32,000 nt of DNA, taken from assembly GCF_021054785.1 (NCBI RefSeq), contig NZ_CP088239.1, positions 750,001 through 782,000 of the forward strand, given 5' to 3'. Within the stretch, counting starts at the first letter, position 1, and every line of letters begins with the position of its first letter. The stretch is from Tannockella kyphosi (GTDB taxonomy: Bacteria; Bacillota_I; Bacilli_A; Erysipelotrichales; Coprobacillaceae). This document shows positions 3,735 through 31,432 of the stretch, one piece after another. Below the pieces are notes generated by a model. It ran no database searches. It saw only the letters and a program-made list of their open reading frames with translations, and had not been told where the DNA came from. Position numbers and translations under genes: made by a program.

Positions 3735-6700
3735 TATTCCACCACCAAAAATGAGATAAGCTCAAAATCGTCCGTTGTATCATCAGCAAAAGCATTATTA
3801 AAACCACCAAAGTCAAATGACATGGAAATAGCTTTTTCTTCTTCAACACCCTTTATCGATTTCACAGCCTTATTTAGCAAGTCAGAGTAGAACGACATAT
3901 TATTGGTGTGGCTTGTTCGGTTAAGAAACTTGTCGAAATATTCTTTCATTGGCTGGCTTTTGCCATAGCATAATTTACGGAACACTTTTAAAACTTCTCT
4001 AGCTTGACTGTTTCCATATAAGATTTCCCCATCATTACTAATATAGATCGTGTAGTATGGATAGAGAGATGAGTCGGATTTTGGTTTGTCGCTTAAATTG
4101 CTATGCTTAAAGCAAAGCAACACACCATGATTTTCTCCATCTGTAACGGAATAAATTCCATTAGGGACTTTTTTAAGTTCAGCATGATTGCTTATATAGG
4201 AAGAAAGCTCGTGTAGATACTCATTCATATTTAGGTCAGATAGAGATATGTTTTCATTTGCGTCATCAATATCTATCACTTCATCTTTCAGTCTTTCAAG
4301 CTGTCTTTTTCTGAAATTAAAATCATTCATCTCGGGAGTTAGGACATCTTCATCACCAGTAGAAACAAGGTTGAGTGTAGTCATTTTACCTTTTACTCGT
4401 TGCTCTAATCCAAGATACTCGTTTAATTCCATGTTAGGGAAGAAGTTTATCATTTGTATCTGTTCGTTTGTGCTACCGATACGATCAATTCTACCAAATC
4501 GCTGTATCAGTGATACAGGATTCCATTGAATATCAAAGTTGATAACAGTATCGCAGTCTTGTAAGTTCTGTCCCTCTGAAATACAATCTGTACCAATAAG
4601 AATATCTATTTGTTCTTTGTGTGGTATTTCTTTCTTCGTTTTAGATTTAGGAGAGAAAGCACACAAGACATCATTAAACTTAGCATCTATTAATTTGTTG
4701 GTGGTTTTAGCACCTTTACCAGTAACAACAGCAGAATGAATATTATTGCTTTTTAGCTCACTTGCGATTTCTTTATAAATATAGTCAGCAGTATCAGAAA
4801 AAGCAGTGAAGATTAGTAACTTTCTATTACCTACGTTATAAGGTGTTGTAGTGATTTTCTTAATAATAATTTCTTTAAGTTCTTCTATTTTAGCATCTCG
4901 GTTTAAGTCCAAAATTTGCTTTGCTTCAGCATAGATTTTTTTCAATATGATTTTATCACCTTCGAGATCGTTTAAATAATCTACAATACGCAAATGTTTT
5001 ACTTCAATTTCATACTTGCCTTCAAGATATGGATATTCTTCATCACCAAAATCACCTTGTTCTTCATCTACATATCCACCATTTTCAAGCCGATAAATTG
5101 TATTATCAATCTTTTCAAGTAGTCGTCTTAAAGTTTCAGCGAATGAAAATACAGAACTTTCAAGTCTTTTAAATAGATTAAATCTATGCAAGACTACCAT
5201 ACCTTTTGATTGAGTATCAAAATCCATCTTACCACCACGTTTACCAGTTAATTTGTACTTTTCGAGGTATATTTTTTGGAACTCTGATTTAATATATTTA
5301 GTTGGAGTATAAACCGATAAGTTTAATACCTCTAGTAACTCGTTAGTATCCTCAAATTTCAGCAAAATAGACATTGTATCTATGTCATTGCGAATAGTAT
5401 CGGGTTTATTCTTTTCGGGAAATTTACCGACGCTGCTGCTTCCATAAAATCCAGTAATGTGTTTTCTACTTCGTGATATGGTCAGTATTTCCAGTAGTTT
5501 ATAAAAATCTGATGGCAAGCTATCTAGCAATAAATTTTTGTTTTTACTATCTTCTCTTTCCCAAAGATTGATAGCAGCAGAAGTCTTTCTAAGTAGATTA
5601 TCCACACTAGAAATACCCTCACCTTGGAATGCAAAATCTTCATCTCTTGAAATAATGCTTATCTGATTTTTCAAGTCTACTAAACTGTTATTTACTGGAG
5701 TAGCAGAGAGTAATAGCACCTTTGTACTATTCTTCCCCTTTTTGATAACATCTTGTAGTAGCCTTGCGTACCTTGTCATAATCAGCTGATCATTATCGTC
5801 ATATCTGTCTTTACGATTTCTAAAATTATGGGACTCATCAATTACAACTAAATCGAAATCGCTCCAGTTGAATTGTTTTAAATCATGTCCCGATGTAGAC
5901 ATACCCTTATATCTCGATAAGTCAGTATGAAACAGTATTCTGTAATTAAATCTTTCATTAAGGAAACTTCCTTTGTTATCCCCTTTAAAAGAATTCCAGT
6001 TATCATACAGTTTAGCAGGTGTTAAAACTAGAACATTATCCATTTTGATTTCAAAATATTTGATTACAGCAAGAGCTTCGAATGTTTTACCCAAACCAAC
6101 AGAGTCAGCAATAATACAGCCACCATATTTATGAAGCTTTTGAATAGCTGATACAACGCAATCTTTTTGAAAATCAAATAGTGCATTCCATATTTCTGTA
6201 CTTTTGAATTTTTGGCTATCATTTTCAAATCGCTCAACACCACTATCTAATTGATGTCCAAATAGCTCGTTTAGAGTGAAGTAATATAGAAACTCTGGCG
6301 AGTGGTCTTTATATATGTAAGCCAAACTTTGTAATAATTCCTGTTTATAATCAGCAGAATATTGTTCGTTATACCAAATTTGCTCAAAAACATTTTTAGC
6401 GTGGTTTATTTGTTCCTTATCTATACTGCCATTAAGCATAGTATCAAAATTAAAACTTTGTATGCCACGTTTTCTCTTGGGTGTAAGCTCTAATGACGAT
6501 GATCCTTGTATCATGAAGTCGTCATCTATAATTAAAACATTGCCACCAATATTAACTTTAGGATTAACTTTCTTTACATTAACATTTTTCTTTATGAAGT
6601 CGTGCATTGCTTTTGCTTTCGCAAAATGTTCTAATTTGTTTTTCTCTACAATGTCATAAGAGTTGTATAAAATATCATTCGGTGATATTTCAAACTCGTG

Positions 6701-8214: not shown

Positions 8215-8329
8215 GTTACATAAATAATTTGATTTTAATTTCAAGAAGATGGGAGTGCTACAAGCTCAAGTATCCGTAATTTTTTAATTTTTGACAAACA
8301 ACAAATTAAAAAATTAAAGGAGAAAGAAA

Positions 8330-8812
8330 ATGAAAACACCCAAAGAATTTGATTATGACTTATGGAAAGATGAAACAGGAAGAGGTTTTATCAGAGTAAA
8401 ACGAACTGGAGAGGTTTGTGAGGTAAATGATGATACATTTAGAGTTTTAAGAAATGAAGCGATGGCGATCTATCGCAATAACAAAGGTGTTCCAGTCTAT
8501 GGAGTTGAAAATGGTAAAAGTGTAGTAGTTCGTTATACTACCAACTTAGCTTTATACATAGAGGAAGGCAATGAGGATATCGGTGCAGACTGGAACATTG
8601 ATAAAACAGACTTAGAAAATGAAATACTAACAAAATTACTTATAGAAGATTTTTGTGAATTACTTACGGACAAGCAGTTAGATGTATTGGAGCAATGTTT
8701 AAAGAAAGGTATGCTTCCGGCTGAGTATGCAAAAGAAAAAGGAATTAGCAAGCGTGCTGTCGGGTACACGATTGAGGGGATTGAAAAAAAAGCAAAAAAG
8801 TTTTTTGACTGA
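8330..8812 (+). CDS. Sigma-70 region-4-like HTH protein (mobile-element regulator)
   Basis: The C-terminus, LTDKQLDVLEQCLKKGMLPAEYAKEKGISKRAVGYTIEGIEKKAKKF, resembles a sigma-70 r4/LuxR-type HTH. Good RBS (AAAGGAG). Such proteins commonly sit upstream of serine recombinase modules in clostridial elements. Confidence 0.6.
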   Translation: MKTPKEFDYDLWKDETGRGFIRVKRTGEVCEVNDDTFRVLRNEAMAIYRNNKGVPVYGVENGKSVVVRYTTNLALYIEEGNEDIGADWNIDKTDLENEILTKLLIEDFCELLTDKQLDVLEQCLKKGMLPAEYAKEKGISKRAVGYTIEGIEKKAKKFFD

Positions 8813-8889
8813 TACTTCACTTTCGTTCATGTTTTGTAGGTTGTTAAGTGAAAGGGATATATAACGACCCTTTATGTTCTTTGACAACC

Positions 8890-9330
8890 GAATATACAGT
8901 ATTGCAAATACTTTCCGTTTAAGTCGAGCAACAAGGATTAAGTCGCCATGACCTCATAGAGTAATTTTAGTGTGCAACTAATTTTATATAAAGAATAACA
9001 CTAAATGACCTTTATGTGATAGCGAGAAACTGAGTTCCGAAACAAACAATGTGGTGTTGTTTGTTTGCCAAGAAACCTAAACGTAATAATGATACTCCTG
9101 TCCAGCCAATAGCTCGAGCGTGATGAAACCGTCGCAAGCAATGGAGGCAGCTACGAGAAATCCTCGCAGGGGTTAGATTCCCGTGATGCCAACCAATGGC
9201 AGTTTGCAGTATTCCCTACATCAACGAGAGTTGATATTGACAGGGTTGTTGAGAACAAATATGTCAAATAAAAACAAACCAATAAAATTTTAAGTAGCAG
9301 AATGTAGAAATATGTTCTGCTACTTTACAT
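8890..9330 (+). ncRNA. Candidate structured non-coding RNA or long structured leader upstream of mazF (family unknown)
   Basis: No ORF of 60 aa or more on the + strand in this ~440-nt interval; the only track ORF reaching it is the rejected minus-strand ORF ending at 8887. I counted 80 G+C in the 160 nt of 9091-9250 (50%), against 21/90 (23%) for 9261-9350. Several clean hairpins are present: 8898-8912, 9040-9066 (10-bp stem), 9220-9235 (6-bp stem with a GAGA tetraloop) and 9292-9325 (11-bp stem). A long-range CCTGTC/GACAGG pairing links 9097-9102 and 9239-9244. Confidence 0.3.
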
Positions 9331-9349
9331 ATTATGAAAGAGGTAAAAA

Positions 9350-9715
9350 ATGCAGAAAAGTAGAATATATCGTGGAGATATTTATTACTGTGACTTAGAG
9401 CCAGTAAAAGGTTCTGTACAAGGTGGTGTAAGACCAGTGTTAATCATTCAAAATCAAATAGGTAACGATTATGCTCCTACACTAATAGTTGCAGTTATAA
9501 CAACTAATATGAAGAAATTAAATCAGCCTACGCATATCGTAATAGGCAAGAATTATGGACTTGAAGATCCGTCAATGGTTATGCTAGAGCAGATTAAGAC
9601 TATTGATAAAAGTGAGCTTAGAAGCTATGTAGGAAGAATTAGCGAGCCTTTTACCATTCAAAAAATAAATCAAGCCTTAGAAATCAGCTTAGGATTAAAA
9701 AATGATGGAATATAG
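9350..9715 (+). CDS. mazF: MazF/PemK-family endoribonuclease toxin
   Basis: The sequence RGDIYYCDLEPVKGSVQGGVRPVLIIQNQIGNDYAPTLIVAVITT...THIVIG...SMVMLEQIKTIDKSEL is the canonical PemK pattern. RBS AAGAGG. Confidence 0.85.
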   Translation: MQKSRIYRGDIYYCDLEPVKGSVQGGVRPVLIIQNQIGNDYAPTLIVAVITTNMKKLNQPTHIVIGKNYGLEDPSMVMLEQIKTIDKSELRSYVGRISEPFTIQKINQALEISLGLKNDGI

Positions 9716-9776
9716 TTTTTGCTCTGTCATAACCCTTTGTCCCAAATCATACTATGAAACAGGAGGTGCAGAAACT

Positions 9777-10019
9777 ATGGTGAATTTAGATGATTTAAAG
9801 AATGTTGACCCACGAACAGTGGATAGAAGTTCTCTTGTGGAGAGAAGCTCCGTGAAAATAGACCCTAATGCTACAAAAGAAGAAAGATTAAGTGAATATA
9901 TCAAGCAAATTAAAAATCCGTATTGTTATCTCGATGGAAAGACTGTTGTTAAAATTAGCTTTGCAAATACGGATACTTCTATTGAAGATTGTATTTCTAA
10001 TTATTTAAAAGGTGTATAA
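9777..10019 (+). CDS. DUF6870-like small protein (80 aa)
   Basis: The sequence MVNLDDLKNVDPRTVDRSSLVERSSVKIDPNATKEERLSEYIKQIKNPYCYLDGKTVVKISFANTD... matches my recollection of the small IKNPYCF-motif proteins found next to serine recombinases. An AGGAGG RBS lies at 9761-9766, so the start is taken at 9777 rather than 9702. Confidence 0.55.
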   Translation: MVNLDDLKNVDPRTVDRSSLVERSSVKIDPNATKEERLSEYIKQIKNPYCYLDGKTVVKISFANTDTSIEDCISNYLKGV

Positions 10020-10113
10020 GTCAAGTGTGTCTACATAAAATCGACATCGTGGATTTTGAAACAAAAATTATATACACTTTAGATGGTAAAAATGAATTTA
10101 GGAGGAAATAATA

Positions 10114-11745
10114 ATGCCGAAAAAAGTGTATAAGGCAGTAGTCTATTGCAGGCTTTCAAAAGAAGATGGCGATAAAGTAGAAAGTAATAGTATTCGTGGA
10201 CAAAGAGCTTTTTGTGAAGAATTTATATCTAAGCAAAAAGATATAACAATTGTTCATGATCCTATTGTTGATGATGGTGTGAGTGGTGTTTCTTTTGAAC
10301 GAGCTGGATTTAAAGAGCTTGAAGAAGAAATCAAAAAAGGAAAAGTAGATTGTGTTGTAGTGCGTGACTTATCGAGGTTTTCTAGGAACTATATTGATGC
10401 AGGAAGATATTTAGAGAAAATCTTTCCCAATCTAGGTATTAGGTTTATAGCTATCAATGATAATTATGACAGTTTAACCAGTGACCCACAATCAGATGCT
10501 TTTGTTTTACCATTCAAAAATCTAATCAATGACACCTATTGTAAAGATATTTCAGTTAAAATTCGTTCTAGCTTAGAGATTAAGAAAAAGAATGGAGATT
10601 ATGTTGGTCCATTTTGTCCTTATGGATATAAGAGAGATGAAATAGAACGACATAGATTAGTAGTTGATGAAAACACAAGAGAAACAATACAGATGATTTT
10701 TTCTTTGTTTAAAGATGGCATGAGTATCGGGAAAATCAAACAACGACTAAATGCCACTGGTATATTGCCACCAATGGATTATAAGCGATCTACGGGTGTT
10801 AATTTTGAAACTGTATTTAAGACAAGCGATACAGCAAAATGGGAATACAATACTGTTAAACGCATTCTCACTAACGATTGTTACATAGGTGTCCTAACAC
10901 AAGGAAAAAGAGGGACACCAAACTACAAAGACCGTAGAACCAAAAACAAAGATGAAAGTGAGTGGGTGAAAATTGAAAATTCCCACGAAGCTCTTATTTC
11001 TTATGAGGATTTTGTAGCAGTAAATAGTCTATTAGCTAGAGATATGCGTTCAACAGTTGATGATAGCGAAAATTCATTATCGGGATTTGTGTTCTGTGCC
11101 GATTGTGGAGCAAGTATGATACGCAAAACTGTTCCATCAAGAGGGAAAAAATATGTATATTATATTTGTTCAAAAAACAAAAAGCACAAAGTTTGTAGTA
11201 CGCATAGCATGGCATTAGTTGAAGTAGAAGAAAAAGTACTAAATGGAATTAGAGATCAAGTAGAACTTGTTGTTAATCTTGAAAAAGCACTTGAACTTAT
11301 AGATGAAACACCTAGTAACAATAGGCAGATATTTAGTTATGAAAAACAGATTGATACATTGAAAGCTGAAATAGAGAGATACCAAAAACTTAAACTTAGG
11401 CTGTACGAAGATTATAATGATGAAATAATCACGAAAGATGAGTATTTTGAATTCAAGAAAATCTACACTTCTAATATAGAAGAAAAAGTAAAGACAATTA
11501 AGCAACTTGAAAAAGAATGTTCACAAGCAATAGGCACTGTTAGTTCTTCAAAAACATGGATAGCAATATTTAAAGAGTATGAAAATTTCATAGCACTTAA
11601 TCGAAGGGTACTATTATCGTTGGTAGATAAAATACTGATTTATGAAAATCATGTTATTGGAGTTGTATTTAAGTACAAAGATGAATACGAAGAAACTTTA
11701 GATTTTATTTTAAAGTTCGAGAATAAAGAAAAAATTGCAGGATAG
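10114..11745 (+). CDS. Large serine recombinase 1 of 3
   Basis: N-terminal resolvase domain (VVYCRLSKEDGD ... VVVRDLSRFSRN), recombinase domain, zinc ribbon (CADCG...YYICSKNKKHKVCSTH) and a C-terminal coiled coil. Confidence 0.9.
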   Translation: MPKKVYKAVVYCRLSKEDGDKVESNSIRGQRAFCEEFISKQKDITIVHDPIVDDGVSGVSFERAGFKELEEEIKKGKVDCVVVRDLSRFSRNYIDAGRYLEKIFPNLGIRFIAINDNYDSLTSDPQSDAFVLPFKNLINDTYCKDISVKIRSSLEIKKKNGDYVGPFCPYGYKRDEIERHRLVVDENTRETIQMIFSLFKDGMSIGKIKQRLNATGILPPMDYKRSTGVNFETVFKTSDTAKWEYNTVKRILTNDCYIGVLTQGKRGTPNYKDRRTKNKDESEWVKIENSHEALISYEDFVAVNSLLARDMRSTVDDSENSLSGFVFCADCGASMIRKTVPSRGKKYVYYICSKNKKHKVCSTHSMALVEVEEKVLNGIRDQVELVVNLEKALELIDETPSNNRQIFSYEKQIDTLKAEIERYQKLKLRLYEDYNDEIITKDEYFEFKKIYTSNIEEKVKTIKQLEKECSQAIGTVSSSKTWIAIFKEYENFIALNRRVLLSLVDKILIYENHVIGVVFKYKDEYEETLDFILKFENKEKIAG

Positions 11746-11754
11746 GAGAAAACA

Positions 11755-13449
11755 ATGGCAAGAAAAAGTAGAGTAAATATTATGCTAGATGAAAACGCAG
11801 TAGTTCAGATGTCAAATAGATTTCCTACTGCAATTTATGCAAGGTTATCAGCAGAAAATAGTGGCAAGGGAACTGATAGAGATATTATCGCAAACCAAAT
11901 TGAAGTGTGTAAGAGTTATATAGGAGAAAACCCACATTTGGATTTAATGGATATATATACTGATGATGGCTACACAGGAACAAAGTTTGATAGACCGGCA
12001 TTCAATCGATTAATGGACGATGTTAAAAGTGGCAAGATTAAATGTATTGTAGTCCGTGACCTCAGTCGTTTTGGTAGAGATTATATAGAAACTGGAACAT
12101 ACATGGAGAGAATTTTTCCGACTCTAGGACTTAGGTTTATAGCTGTGAATGAACGATACGACAGCTTTGAAACCGACCATACAAACGAAGCCTTAATGAT
12201 ACCACTTCAAAATATGATAAATACTCTTTATGCAAAAGATATTTCACGTAAAATATCAGCTTCGCATAGGACAAGAATATTATCAAGGGATTTCAAAAAG
12301 AATATGATACCTTACGGTTATAAGTTAGATGAAACACGATATGAAGTTTCTATCGATGAAGTAGCAGCTCATTATGTAAGGTTTATATTCAATTGGAAGA
12401 TAGAGGGAAAATCTATTAAGCAAATGATTGTGATGCTAGAGGAAATGAACGCACCTAATCCTCATATAAGAAAAATTCAAACTGGATTACGAGGTGGTCA
12501 AGTAGAAAACTTTGGAGGTTGGCATTATTCTACCATTCAAAATATGCTTTGCAATCATGGTTATTTGGGACATACTGTATTCGGAAAAACAGAAATTGCA
12601 TTGTATAAAGGCATAAATAGGAAAGAGTATAGAGAACCCGATAATTGGGTTATATTAGAAAATACTCATGAGCCTATTATTTCGGAAGATGTCTTTAACA
12701 AAGTACAAGAAATAAGAAAGTTAGGAGCTGAAAAGAAACAGGAAAGTATTAAACGAACAGAAAAGAAAAGAGCAAAACTTATAGATTTGTTCAAGGGTAA
12801 GATTTTTTGTAGTGACTGTGGCAAAACGCTATCCTATATTAGAATGGTTGATGGAAATAACTTTGGTGCTTACTATACATGCCCAACTTACGCAAGAAAA
12901 AAAGTATGTACAAAACATAGCGTAAATTATTTAATAGTTAATGCAACGGTTCTCAAAGTAATTCAAACACAAGTTAAAGTAGCTCTTGATTATGAAGTTT
13001 TATTAAATAAAATAAAGCATAGTGAAAGTGATAAGAGCATTAGAGATAAGCAAAATGCTAATATTTCCAGTTTAAATCTTAAGATAAATGGTATCAGTAG
13101 AAAGCGAAGTCGGTTATATGAAGATTATGCTGAAGGGGTTTTAGATGAGGAAGAATATACTTTTGTGAAGCAGAGTTATGATGATGACTACAATAGTTTA
13201 AAAATGTTATTAGATGAAGCATTGCAACGTCGTTCTAAATTCAATGAAGCTATGTCTAGTGATAACAAATGGATCAGCTTAATGAAGTCTGTGAGTTCAG
13301 CTAAAATATTAACACAAAGTCTTGTAGACGAAGTTATAGAAAAAGTATCGGTACTTGAAGATGGAACACTAGATATTGCAATGAAATATTTCGATGTATT
13401 TTCTCTTATGCAAAATACTGTGGCAAAAGTGCAGGAGGTGACAGTATGA
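11755..13449 (+). CDS. Large serine recombinase 2 of 3
   Basis: AIYARLSAENSG ... IVVRDLSRFGRD, and zinc ribbon CSDCG...YYTCPTYARKKVCTKH. Confidence 0.9.
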   Translation: MARKSRVNIMLDENAVVQMSNRFPTAIYARLSAENSGKGTDRDIIANQIEVCKSYIGENPHLDLMDIYTDDGYTGTKFDRPAFNRLMDDVKSGKIKCIVVRDLSRFGRDYIETGTYMERIFPTLGLRFIAVNERYDSFETDHTNEALMIPLQNMINTLYAKDISRKISASHRTRILSRDFKKNMIPYGYKLDETRYEVSIDEVAAHYVRFIFNWKIEGKSIKQMIVMLEEMNAPNPHIRKIQTGLRGGQVENFGGWHYSTIQNMLCNHGYLGHTVFGKTEIALYKGINRKEYREPDNWVILENTHEPIISEDVFNKVQEIRKLGAEKKQESIKRTEKKRAKLIDLFKGKIFCSDCGKTLSYIRMVDGNNFGAYYTCPTYARKKVCTKHSVNYLIVNATVLKVIQTQVKVALDYEVLLNKIKHSESDKSIRDKQNANISSLNLKINGISRKRSRLYEDYAEGVLDEEEYTFVKQSYDDDYNSLKMLLDEALQRRSKFNEAMSSDNKWISLMKSVSSAKILTQSLVDEVIEKVSVLEDGTLDIAMKYFDVFSLMQNTVAKVQEVTV

Positions 13450-14996
13450 GTGTAGCTATGTATATTAGACTTTCCGATGCTGACGAAGATACTGGTTTTA
13501 GCAAAACAGAAAGTGATAGTGTTGTTAATCAAAGATTATATATCAATGATTATATTAACAAACAAACCTCACTTTCAAGACTTGCACGATTTGAGTTTGT
13601 TGATGACGGATATACTGGAACGAATGATGAACGTCCAAGTCTTAATAAAATGATGGAAGCTGTGAGGAGTGGAATTGTAAAAATAATTTGTGTGAAAGAT
13701 TTTTCACGGTTTTTTCGAGATTATATTGAAGCAGGAAACTATTTGGAGTGCGTTTTTCCATTCTTAGGAGTGAGATTTATTTCTATAAACGACAACTATG
13801 ATAGTGATGATTACAAAGGGACAACTGGTGGTTTAGAAATGGTAATGAGAAATATTATCTATACTGCTTATAGCAAGGATTTATCGCTTAAAGTATCCAG
13901 TGGTAAATTGGAGTTAATCAAGAAAGGTAAGTTTATAGGAAGTCACGCACCTTATGGTTATAAGAAAGATCCTAACGATAAAAACAAGATAATCATCGAT
14001 GATGAGTCTGCTAAAGTTGTTAGGTTAATATTTGACTCGGCTATGAACGGGAAAACTGTAAGAGAAATAACACTCATTTTAAATGAAAAGGATATACCAA
14101 CAAAAAGTCAATATTTCAAACTTAAATATCCCGACAGTAATAAGTATAACTATATGTATGAGAAAATACATTGGCAACCATCGAGGGTATACGACATCTT
14201 AAAAAACAGTCTATACAAAGGTGATATGGTGTCTTTAAGGAAAAAGAAAGTTAGCTTCAATTCAAAAAAACTAATAAAGCAAGACCCTATTATTATAGAA
14301 GATAATCATCAAGGGATTGTTACAAAACAAGAATTTGAAGAAGCTCAAAAGGTTATCAAAATATCAAAGCAAGCATCAAAGAAAAACTATATAGACTTTC
14401 CATTACGAGGGTTAGTTCGATGTGGTCATTGTCAATATTTAATGGACAGAGTGAAAAAACAAGGTGTGTTTTACTTTAAATGTAAAAGTGCCTTAAATGG
14501 AAAAATTGATGCCTGTAAAACCAATATTGATACAGATGAAGGAACGGTAGAGGGTGTTGTATTTCATGCGATTATGAACTTTATTGCATTTACTAAGCAA
14601 GAAGATATCAAACAAACAAAACCAACTTCTTATGATTTGACGATTCACCTCACAGAGCTTTCCAATAAGATAGCAGGACTTAAACAATCAAAACTTCGAC
14701 TTTATGAAAAATATACTTGTGATGAATTAACTAGAGAAAATTATATCAAGCAAAAACAAGAATGTGATAAGAAAATTAAATTAGCAGAAGAACAGATAAG
14801 CGAATATGAAGTAAAACTTAGGGAGCAGGCATATTCCGAAAAAGAAAAACCTGTTATTGGTATTTGTGACAAATATATATCGGAAAGCAAACTCACCAAA
14901 GAAATGGTAAACGCATTTATTAAAACAGTCTATGTTTTTGATAAAGATACAATTCATGTAGAGTTCAAATACAAAAATGTTTTTGAAGAAAGGTAG
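13446..14996 (+). CDS. Large serine recombinase 3 of 3
   Basis: AMYIRLSDADED ... ICVKDFSRFFRD, and zinc ribbon CGHCQ...YFKCKSALNGKIDACKT. The start overlaps the stop of recombinase 2 (ATGA). Confidence 0.9.
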   Translation: MSVAMYIRLSDADEDTGFSKTESDSVVNQRLYINDYINKQTSLSRLARFEFVDDGYTGTNDERPSLNKMMEAVRSGIVKIICVKDFSRFFRDYIEAGNYLECVFPFLGVRFISINDNYDSDDYKGTTGGLEMVMRNIIYTAYSKDLSLKVSSGKLELIKKGKFIGSHAPYGYKKDPNDKNKIIIDDESAKVVRLIFDSAMNGKTVREITLILNEKDIPTKSQYFKLKYPDSNKYNYMYEKIHWQPSRVYDILKNSLYKGDMVSLRKKKVSFNSKKLIKQDPIIIEDNHQGIVTKQEFEEAQKVIKISKQASKKNYIDFPLRGLVRCGHCQYLMDRVKKQGVFYFKCKSALNGKIDACKTNIDTDEGTVEGVVFHAIMNFIAFTKQEDIKQTKPTSYDLTIHLTELSNKIAGLKQSKLRLYEKYTCDELTRENYIKQKQECDKKIKLAEEQISEYEVKLREQAYSEKEKPVIGICDKYISESKLTKEMVNAFIKTVYVFDKDTIHVEFKYKNVFEER

Positions 14997-15063
14997 GTAG
15001 CGATGAGGAAAACAAACCGGATTAGAGATGATACAAGGGTTTATATTTTTTTAGTCCTTAGTT

Positions 15064-15082
15064 TACACAATCAGATTGTGTA
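15064..15082. repeat. Palindrome TACACAAT-CAG-ATTGTGTA at the element/spoIVA junction; candidate attR core
   Basis: Perfect 8-bp arms read from the sequence. The right arm encodes the D-C-V codons where SpoIVA homology starts. The left arm belongs to sequence with no SpoIVA homology. Confidence 0.45.
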
Positions 15083-23101: not shown

Positions 23102-23435
23102 ATGCTTATGAGAGTTGATTGCTACATTAGTAGAGGAAAGTCCGCGCATCCACAGACTGAAATGTTTGTAGTGTTTGTACTCAATCCAATAAATTGAGGC
23201 AGGTAACTGACGACAGGCCTAAGACCTAAGCGATAAAGTAAGGTTGTTAAGTCAAAAAGTGCCACAGAAACTATATCTATTTGAAAAAATAGGCTGAAAA
23301 GAGGTAAACTCTGCAAGGATGAAACCCAAATTTGGTAGGGGAATTAGGTAAAAGGAATAACAATGGATACCTAAATGCATTGCATAGATAAATAATCGAC
23401 TGAAAAACAGAACGCGGCTTATCAGAATAAGCATC
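23102..23435 (+). ncRNA. rnpB: RNase P RNA (bacterial type B), compact at ~335 nt
   Basis: The conserved P4 strands GAGGAAAGTCCG (23133-23144) and ACAGAACGCGGCTTA (about 23408-23422) are present, together with AAGTGCCACAGAAA and ACCCAAATTTGGTAGGGGAA elements. P1 pairs TGCTTAT (23103-23109) with ATAAGCA (23427-23433). Confidence 0.85.
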
Positions 23436-30322: not shown

Positions 30323-31432
30323 ATGGAAGATGTAAAAACATGGAGACAATGTTTACATCAAATACCGGAATTAGGCTTAGAAGAATTTAAAACAACAGCC
30401 TATTTAAAAGAAGTTCTAACTTCATTAGGGTATCAACCTATTGATTTGCTAGAGACAGGTGTTTATGTGTTCATTGACAACCAAAAAGAAACAACACTAG
30501 CTTTTCGTAGTGATATTGATGCTTTAGCAATTCAAGAAGCAAATGATGTAGAATATGCATCGACTCATCAAGGGTATATGCATGCTTGTGGACATGATGG
30601 ACATATGGCAGCTTTGTTAGGGTTTGCTAAGAAGTTAAAAGAATCAAAAAATGATTTTGCTCATAATTTCTTATTGCTATTTCAGCCTGCTGAAGAGTCT
30701 CCAGGAGGAGCTAAATTAGTAGTAGAAACAGGTTTGTTATTAGAATATAATGTTCAAGCTATTTTTGGAATGCATTTAATGCCATTTATTGAAGAAGGAA
30801 CTATTGCTTGTAAAAGTGGTGCATTTATGGCTACGAATGGAGAATTGGATATTGAGATTATTGGTAAAAGTGCTCATGCTGGATTGTATCATCAAGGTAT
30901 TGATAGTATTGTGATTGCAACTCAACTAATAAGTCAATATCAAACTATTGTTAGTAGAATGCTTTCCCCATTTGAACCTAGTGTTATTCATATTGGAAAT
31001 ATTGAGGGCGGGAGTGCCCGTAATATTGTAGCTGATAAAACTGTTTTAAAAGGGACTATTCGTGCCTTTGATGAAAAAGCATATCAATTAATTGCCGATA
31101 AAGTTTTAGAAATAAATAAAGGAATGGAACAAGCATATGACTGTACAATTCATTGTACATGTCCTCCAATGTATCCTCCTGTTATTAATGATGAAAACTT
31201 ATATCTAAAATTTAAAGAAAATATGATAGGGAATTATATAGAACTAAAAGAACCATTTATGTTAGCAGAAGACTTTTCTTATTATCAAAAAGAAGTACCA
31301 GGAATATTCTTCTTTTTAGGAACAAAAACAGAACAATATACAAGTGGTTTACATACTGAAACATTTAATTTTAATGAAACTGTTTTAGAAAAAGCAATTG
31401 AAACATATTACCAGCTAGCTTGTAATATGTAG
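30323..31432 (+). CDS. dapL: M20-family amidohydrolase, probable N-acetyldiaminopimelate deacetylase
   Basis: M20 motifs (HACGHDGH, QPAEE) and a position directly after dapH, as for ykuR in Bacillus. Confidence 0.75.
   Translation: MEDVKTWRQCLHQIPELGLEEFKTTAYLKEVLTSLGYQPIDLLETGVYVFIDNQKETTLAFRSDIDALAIQEANDVEYASTHQGYMHACGHDGHMAALLGFAKKLKESKNDFAHNFLLLFQPAEESPGGAKLVVETGLLLEYNVQAIFGMHLMPFIEEGTIACKSGAFMATNGELDIEIIGKSAHAGLYHQGIDSIVIATQLISQYQTIVSRMLSPFEPSVIHIGNIEGGSARNIVADKTVLKGTIRAFDEKAYQLIADKVLEINKGMEQAYDCTIHCTCPPMYPPVINDENLYLKFKENMIGNYIELKEPFMLAEDFSYYQKEVPGIFFFLGTKTEQYTSGLHTETFNFNETVLEKAIETYYQLACNM

Follow-up and report, generated by a model that had tools for sequence, protein, structure and literature searches.

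Upstream of a mazF gene in the genome of Tannockella kyphosi lies a non-coding interval that is rich in GC and dense in hairpins, which raises the question of whether it represents a structured RNA and, if so, what that RNA does. The interval occupies positions 8890–9330 of the window, by which we mean the whole 32,000-nucleotide (nt) stretch that was analyzed (NZ_CP088239.1, positions 750,001–782,000, forward strand; assembly GCF_021054785.1; window position 15074 is genome position 765074). The initial annotation, made from the sequence alone, had proposed a novel structured RNA here, and its description of the interval was largely accurate. Of the 160 nt at 9091–9250, 80 are G or C, compared with 21 of the 90 nt at 9261–9350 and a window mean of 31%, and no open reading frame (ORF) of at least 60 amino acids occurs on either strand of 8890–9330, the longest being 36 amino acids on the plus strand and 46 on the minus strand. 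The 10-bp stem at 9040–9066, the 6-bp hairpin with a GAGA loop at 9220–9235, and the GGG/CCC pairing of 9170–9172 with 9180–9182 that it had pointed out are present in the sequence. The palindrome at 9292–9325 is also present, but it forms a stem of 15 bp, including two G-U pairs, capped by a GAAA loop, rather than the 11 bp originally described. The helix proposed to enclose the core (CCTGTC at 9097–9102 with GACAGG at 9239–9244) was rejected: in the homologues, CUGUCC, the 5′ strand of helix P1, pairs with 9145–9150, and GACAGG is part of a separate downstream hairpin at 9237–9267.

A 460-nt stretch was more stable than dinucleotide shuffles on both strands (z = −3.7 on the plus strand and −3.05 on the minus strand), so that stability alone cannot choose the strand. 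The plus strand is instead fixed by conserved U-G pairs, such as that between alignment columns 14 and 430, found in 24 of the 30 aligned sequences described below.

The core matches pemK RNA and canT of Tn916

A scan of the window with Rfam 15 gave two above-threshold matches, to pemK RNA (RF02913) and to class B RNase P RNA, the latter at 23106–23424 on the plus strand with 209 bits. The pemK RNA match, at 9086–9186 on the plus strand, spans the full length of the model (positions 1–61 of 61) and, at 59.7 bits (E = 4e-10), exceeds the gathering score of 34.8. The initial annotation had matched the region to no known family, whereas Rfam matches it well above threshold. No other Rfam family matched the region, and no other copy of RF02913 was found in the 2.26-Mb genome, so the window copy is the only one. 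It contains the three-stem junction, the one closing pair, the 5′ AUAAUGAUACU, and the 3′ UGA of the family, and carries a 38-nt insertion in the P1 loop relative to the model, with an insert of 41 nt between the P1 strands in the window. Rfam files RF02913 as 'Cis-reg', under a name taken from pemK and with no function assigned; the motif was reportedly proposed as a candidate by Weinberg et al. in 2017. Like the Rfam pemK RNA, the window copy belongs to a Bacillota genome and precedes a pemK gene.

When the intergenic region was compared by blastn with plasmids and phages, the core alone matched, with approximately 76% identity over 105 nt, to the core of Tn916 canT. The best matches were all in Tn916/Tn925 copies (e.g., in pCF10), where the core occupies the orf8–xis interval, beneath the antisense 'orf5'. 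Nothing beyond this core of approximately 105 nt was alignable in a blastn comparison of the whole intergenic region with plasmids, phages, and 60 relatives. The RF02913 model in turn matched Tn916 between orf8 and xis (L002 4005–4105, 55 bits). The core is therefore not novel, being both a pemK RNA and the essential core of the already characterized canT.

In Tn916, canT (conjugation-associated antitermination RNA) was mapped by Wirachman and Grossman (2024) as an orientation-specific processive antiterminator, most probably an RNA, whose action is confined to cis (PMC11658703). In a lacZ reporter driven by a heterologous promoter, it works in the absence of conjugation genes and in a single orientation (PMC11658703). 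Antitermination is abolished by canT(S3), in which the ATA located at nt 283 past the orf8 stop codon is replaced by TGC, and likewise by the delta162 deletion (PMC11658703). On the Tn916 sequence, the S3 site corresponds to L002 4005–4007, the first three bases of the pemK motif, and because the RF02913 match begins at L002 4005, the Rfam model starts on the ATA that is altered in S3; delta162 (L002 3951–4112) takes out the entire motif. In the window, AUAAUGAUACU is intact, with AUA at 9086–9088 corresponding to the S3-critical bases. A 400-bp Tn916 fragment is still active despite the S3 mutation, which means that the relation between structure and function is not simple. Both pemK and Rfam go unmentioned in the 2024 paper (PMC11658703) and in the follow-up preprint of 2026.

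A conserved fold extends far beyond the Rfam model

One genome per species was scanned for the exact pattern, which identified >80 loci carrying the motif's long form; these span many Bacillota, among them Streptococcus, Lachnospiraceae, Oscillospiraceae, Peptoniphilus, and Veillonella. Removal of near-duplicates left 38 representatives, and the 30 non-redundant ones with a detectable P0 helix were aligned. Conservation in the 38 representatives reaches far past the 61-nt model: the conserved, co-varying RNA measures approximately 240–350 nt, whereas the model, of 61 consensus positions, covers 101 nt in the window. Two long-range helices close the RNA, a kissing loop joins it, and compensatory changes occur throughout. 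Minimum free energy (MFE) folds of six homologues, made independently, agree on P0, P0b, H1, H2, H3, a three-way junction with an extended P1, and P4, and Tn916 canT has the same overall fold (P0, P0b, H1–H3, the kissing loop, and P1–P4). The closed RNA in the window occupies approximately 8898–9213 and probably runs on to around 9267.

All features of the fold lie on the plus strand. The whole RNA is closed by P0, a 12-bp helix between AGUAUUGCAAAU (8898–8909) and GUUUGCAGUAUU (9202–9213) that appears in the MFE fold of the window and links the bases immediately preceding a conserved AC(N)UU with those immediately following P4. This helix was located by an anchored ungapped search, RNAduplex between long flanks being too permissive. 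Although its sequence differs widely among the loci, an equivalent P0 occurs in 30 of the 38 representatives, and 10 of 10 counted pairs show double changes, a statistic that is inflated because the aligned sequences were partly picked for a visible P0. Inside it, P0b encloses the 5′ domain by pairing CGUUUA (8916–8921) with UAAACG (9078–9083), and in the homologues AUAAUGAUACU closely follows its 3′ strand. P0b is seen in the MFE folds of the relatives; in the window it has only 6 bp and is missing from the MFE fold. The H1/H2 domain (8935–9038) is formed by H1, which pairs GGA-UUAAGU-CGC (8935–8946) with GCG...ACUGAG-U-UCC (9022–9038). In the homologues, H1 encloses CGC-CAUGAC, the variable hairpin H2, and GAGCGA; in the window, the conserved blocks CAUGAC (8947–8952) and GAUAGCGAG (9018–9026) flank an expanded H2 (8955–9016) of 62 nt, compared with 17 nt in Tn916 canT. 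Columns 66–72 and 188–199, which form H1, are 87–98% paired, with 10–12 double changes per pair.

The H3 hairpin, with its 10-bp stem (9040–9066), is conserved in position, and its loop UGGU (9052–9055) kisses the loop ACCA (9192–9195) of the P4 hairpin (UGCCA/UGGCA, 9187–9201). RNAalifold applied to the 30 sequences paired the H3 loop URGC with the P4 loop GCYA; the columns involved (221–224 with 417–420) are 88% paired, and 4 of the 4 pairs show double changes. The UGGU/ACCA of the window is a compensated variant of the UAGC/GCUA, found in Tn916 canT, and of UGGC/GCCA. Between H3 and the core lies a single-stranded GCNAYGA block (GCCAAGA in the window, 9067–9073) with near-invariant G and C columns. 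The Rfam core (9086–9186) begins with AUAAUGAUACU at 9086–9096 and comprises the closing pair C9097–G9183, P1 (9098–9103 with 9145–9150), P2 (9151–9157 with 9163–9169), P3 (9170–9172 with 9180–9182), and the UGA at 9184–9186. The closing pair co-varies, being C-G in 21 sequences and U-A in nine. Many double changes occur in P1 and P2, where pairing reaches 99%, and P1–P3 are 99–100% paired overall.

To quantify the covariation, 43 hand-specified pairs from P0, H1, the kissing loop, the closing pair, and P1–P4 were counted on the MAFFT alignment. Standard pairs filled 88.4% of the cells, compared with 74.2% after shuffling (0 of 500 shuffles reached the observed value) and 37–42% when the partner was slid by 1–3 columns. 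Double-sided changes were found in 34 of the 43 pairs versus 22.3 in the shuffled alignments (again 0 of 500), and the covariation score was 0.461 versus 0.199. P0b, H2, and H3 were left out of this column-wise count because MAFFT misregisters the subfamilies (P0b and P4 are one column out). The long-range contacts were checked by permuting the partners of anchor-defined strands, and the others by local folding. In none of 5000 permutations were the cognate energies matched, with values of −11.4 versus −6.4 kcal/mol for P0, −11.6 versus −4.3 kcal/mol for P0b, −7.0 versus −5.3 kcal/mol for H1, and −5.35 versus −3.97 kcal/mol for the kissing loop. The RF02913 match, the co-varying fold, and the conserved G-U pairs support the original reading of the region as a structured, non-coding, plus-strand RNA; judged by sequence and structure, it is a real folded member of the already known pemK/canT family.

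The region 3′ of P0 contains two further hairpins that distinguish the window RNA from Tn916 canT. P5 (9220–9235), with the GAGA loop, is optional in the relatives. P6 pairs UUGACA (9237–9242) with UGUCAA (9262–9267) around a loop that starts with GGG, and relatives linked to PemK or serine recombinases have a hairpin in the same place, with a loop of the GGG...AAUA type and stems that co-vary by eye (GCUCC/GGAGC and UUGUC/GACAA). In one RNA clade (L014, L026, L049, L054, L058, L077, L089, L093, and L122), a hairpin occurs 30–60 nt after P0 with a near-invariant 20-nt loop, GGGAAGUAGUGUCGAAUAGG, to which the P6 loop of the window, GGGUUGUUGAGAACAAAUA, bears only a loose likeness.

On the 5′ side, a boxA-like element, UGUUCUUUGACAAC, lies at 8875–8888 on the plus strand, 9 nt 5′ of the closed RNA. 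With at most one mismatch, TGTTCTTTGA was found upstream of the RNA in 38 of 71 related loci, compared with one of 71 on the opposite strand, and the ten boxA-like bases searched for are identical in Tn916. The P0-closed RNA of Tn916 (L002 3864–4130) lies wholly within the active 452-bp fragment (3848–4299), which begins inside the boxA-like 14-mer and lacks its first 6 nt. Both the boxA-like element and the 3′ extension to approximately 9267 probably belong to the RNA. The boxA-like sequence of the host rrn operons, AGAUCAUUGAAAAC, matches at 10 of 14 positions and differs from the UGUUCUUUGA type of the element; it was found 119 nt upstream of each of the five 16S genes and in every 16S–23S spacer. 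A second near-match to the boxA-like 14-mer, TGTTCATTGACAAC, at 30468–30481 on the plus strand of the window, is inside an ORF (30323–31432) and is probably due to chance.

A conjugative element in spoIVA carries the RNA close to its right end

As the initial annotation had suggested among other possibilities, the RNA is associated with a large element. The spoIVA gene of T. kyphosi is split: positions 1–99 of the ATPase are encoded at genome 673438–673737, and positions 97–236 and the remainder from 765074, and both junctions (window 15060–15080 and L139 1720–1745) share ATTGTGTA. The intervening element is approximately 91 kb long and conjugative, and the RNA is situated 5.9 kb from its right end. 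Its plus-strand genes encode a VirB4-like ATPase, a CHAP/NlpC hydrolase, a topoisomerase, an ArdC/YodL protein, and a MobA/VirD2 relaxase, and it also carries restriction-modification cargo. Deep within it, a fourth large serine recombinase gene (with DUF4368) adjoins a topoisomerase gene, and genes for a D12 methylase and a FokI-like type IIS nuclease pair come next (L134 9593–11434 and 13919–17648); this group may represent a nested element or a cargo island. Within the plus-strand element genes at genome 673900–745300, UACAU, the Bacillus subtilis MazF/EndoA site, occurs 56 times in the sense orientation versus 116 times as the reverse complement and approximately 119 expected, a roughly two-fold sense-strand depletion for which the expectation was drawn from base composition, with codon effects uncontrolled.

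The element's right end is arranged as a GntR-like gene, a sigma-region-4-like gene, the RNA, mazF, DUF6870, and three large serine recombinase genes. The gene immediately upstream of the RNA (8330–8812, plus strand) encodes a 160-amino-acid protein with weak Pfam and NCBIfam matches to sigma-70 region-4/YlxM-like helix–turn–helix (HTH) proteins, and a BLASTP comparison of this protein with Orf7/Sig7 of Tn916 detected no similarity. In the related loci, the upstream gene was of the HTH_16 type, like Orf8/Sig8 of Tn916, in 43 of 66 cases and of the Sigma70_r4 type in 13, so that the two types together accounted for 56 of 66. Downstream, mazF/pemK (9350–9715, plus strand; Pfam) has no antitoxin gene upstream of it, and its end is overlapped by 14 nt by DUF6870 (9702–10019, plus strand; Pfam), a candidate downstream antitoxin for this antitoxin-less mazF. 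The three large serine recombinases, also assigned with Pfam, are encoded at 10114–11745, 11755–13449, and 13446–14996 on the plus strand.

No plus-strand terminator-like site was found between the RNA and the element's right end (9216–15074). At the left end, a very strong terminator with a 20-bp stem, a GAAA loop, and T6 is predicted on the plus strand (L139 1863–1906, genome 673863–673906). It lies approximately 120 nt inside the element, between the 5′ fragment of spoIVA and the first element gene, and the consensus prediction places no other plus-strand terminator-like site between it and the joint of the element. This makes it a candidate insulator like T1 of Tn916.

Gene neighborhoods and alternative functions

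The 'Cis-reg' class, the pemK name, and the absence of an antitoxin gene upstream of mazF would all suit a leader specific to mazF, that is, an RNA that senses a ligand or protein or is cut by MazF and controls mazF only, through the hairpin at 9292–9325 and the ribosome-binding site (RBS). This 15-bp hairpin is followed by UACAU (9326–9330), the RBS (9337–9343), and the mazF start at 9350; every PemK-linked relative has a strong hairpin just 5′ of the RBS, and L057 also has the order hairpin, UACAU, RBS. This layout may be a feature of MazF self-cleavage or mRNA stability. However, the hairpin lies outside the conserved closed RNA, and UACAU is not unusual here, with two occurrences in the leader versus 0.9 expected and 88 in the whole element. 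Of 74 non-identical long-form loci, only six have PemK as the product of the next gene, compared with 36 in which an excisionase or HTH_17 protein follows and five with a serine recombinase. The RNA is thus tied to the junction between regulator and recombinase genes in conjugative elements rather than to pemK as such, and the long-form members differ from the Rfam description in that most of them precede excisionase genes. Moreover, the Tn916 homologue has no mazF, and yet the RNA is essential for antitermination (PMC11658703). Because of these gene tallies and the Tn916 data, we regard a mazF-specific regulator, a role that the initial annotation had listed among its options, as unlikely. 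A riboswitch with a terminator/anti-terminator platform is likewise poorly supported: no terminator-like site was called on the plus strand of 8300–10200, the hairpin at 9292–9325 being passed over because of its poor U tract, and this hairpin does not cover the RBS.

Given that the host element is conjugative and that both strands of this hairpin-dense region fold better than their shuffles, the region might alternatively act as single-stranded DNA, as an oriT or a single-strand origin for conjugative rolling-circle replication. The conserved G-U (in DNA, G-T) pairs would become A-C mismatches on the opposite strand and so fix the strand of the structure, and the lacZ reporter in which canT is active in a single orientation measures pure transcription (PMC11658703). 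The map legend of Tn916 draws oriT and sso916 apart from canT (PMC11658703), and in the T. kyphosi element the relaxase gene is approximately 24 kb away (L135 13857–15257). Given wobble pairs that are specific to one strand, together with the reporter results, an origin of this kind is very improbable.

Still less credence can be given to a type III-like RNA antitoxin that neutralizes the orphan MazF in trans. A structured RNA does lie directly 5′ of a toxin gene that has no antitoxin ORF upstream, but no tandem repeats, by which type III antitoxins are recognized, were found in 8800–9400, canT acts exclusively in cis (PMC11658703), and most family members have no adjacent toxin gene; the overlapping DUF6870 is, in addition, an alternative antitoxin candidate. 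Finally, a decayed protein-coding remnant with chance hairpins, which the antisense 'orf5' long annotated over the Tn916 homologue might suggest, can practically be dismissed, since no ORF in the interval exceeds 46 amino acids, orf5 start-codon and stop mutants of Tn916 are wild type (PMC11658703), and the substitutions keep pairs rather than codons, contrary to the frameshifted, non-covarying remnant envisaged at the outset.

A putative processive antitermination leader

Taken with the fold, the homology to canT, and the gene order, these considerations argue that the RNA at approximately 8898–9213 on the plus strand is, with good probability, a pemK/canT-family leader that acts in cis to make RNA polymerase resistant to terminators, i.e., a processive antiterminator. 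We envisage that transcription would start upstream, no later than the sigma-like gene (8330–8812), and produce the RNA, which would fold and remain with the elongating polymerase. Once the approximately 91-kb element had been excised from spoIVA and circularized, the polymerase could cross the joint, pass the left-end terminator, and continue into the plus-strand genes for DNA processing and conjugation. In the integrated state, the same terminator would insulate the element from transcription driven by the spoIVA promoter.

This arrangement resembles that of Tn916 in several respects. The RNA follows sigma-type regulator genes (here only weakly sigma-region-4-like), precedes the excision and integration genes, with which it is co-oriented, and is near the right end, and a terminator just inside the left end (T1 in Tn916, a consensus prediction here) would be met after circularization. 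The elements themselves differ: Tn916 is 18 kb long and carries Xis/Int, whereas the present element is approximately 91 kb long, carries three large serine recombinases, and resides in spoIVA, and, unlike in Tn916, mazF and DUF6870 are interposed between the RNA and the recombinase genes.

Other processive antiterminator RNAs include HK022 put, the Bacillus EAR element, and the boxA-based systems of rrn operons and lambda nut. The T. kyphosi RNA is probably like them in being a nascent RNA that renders polymerase terminator-resistant in cis over long distances, a likeness in mode of action with no homology seen, and, as in the rrn and nut leaders, a candidate boxA-like sequence precedes it.

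A broader but distinctly tentative proposal is that all members of the Rfam pemK family are canT-type antiterminators. The functional unit would then comprise approximately 250–400 nt, with a boxA-like Nus-factor site and an RNA closed by P0/P0b and locked by the H3–P4 kissing loop, and it would be used together with a left-end insulator terminator by elements with either serine or tyrosine recombinases. In T. kyphosi, such a unit would keep a 91-kb element silent within an actively transcribed sporulation gene until excision.

For the window alone, the outcome is an ordinary annotation, for which pemK/canT-family leader RNA is the appropriate label. For the family, the link to canT attaches a tested function to a motif that had been an orphan in Rfam, and the recurrence of the logic of canT plus insulator terminator in so different an element, 91 kb long, equipped with serine recombinases, and inserted in spoIVA, suggests a general design of Bacillota conjugative elements.
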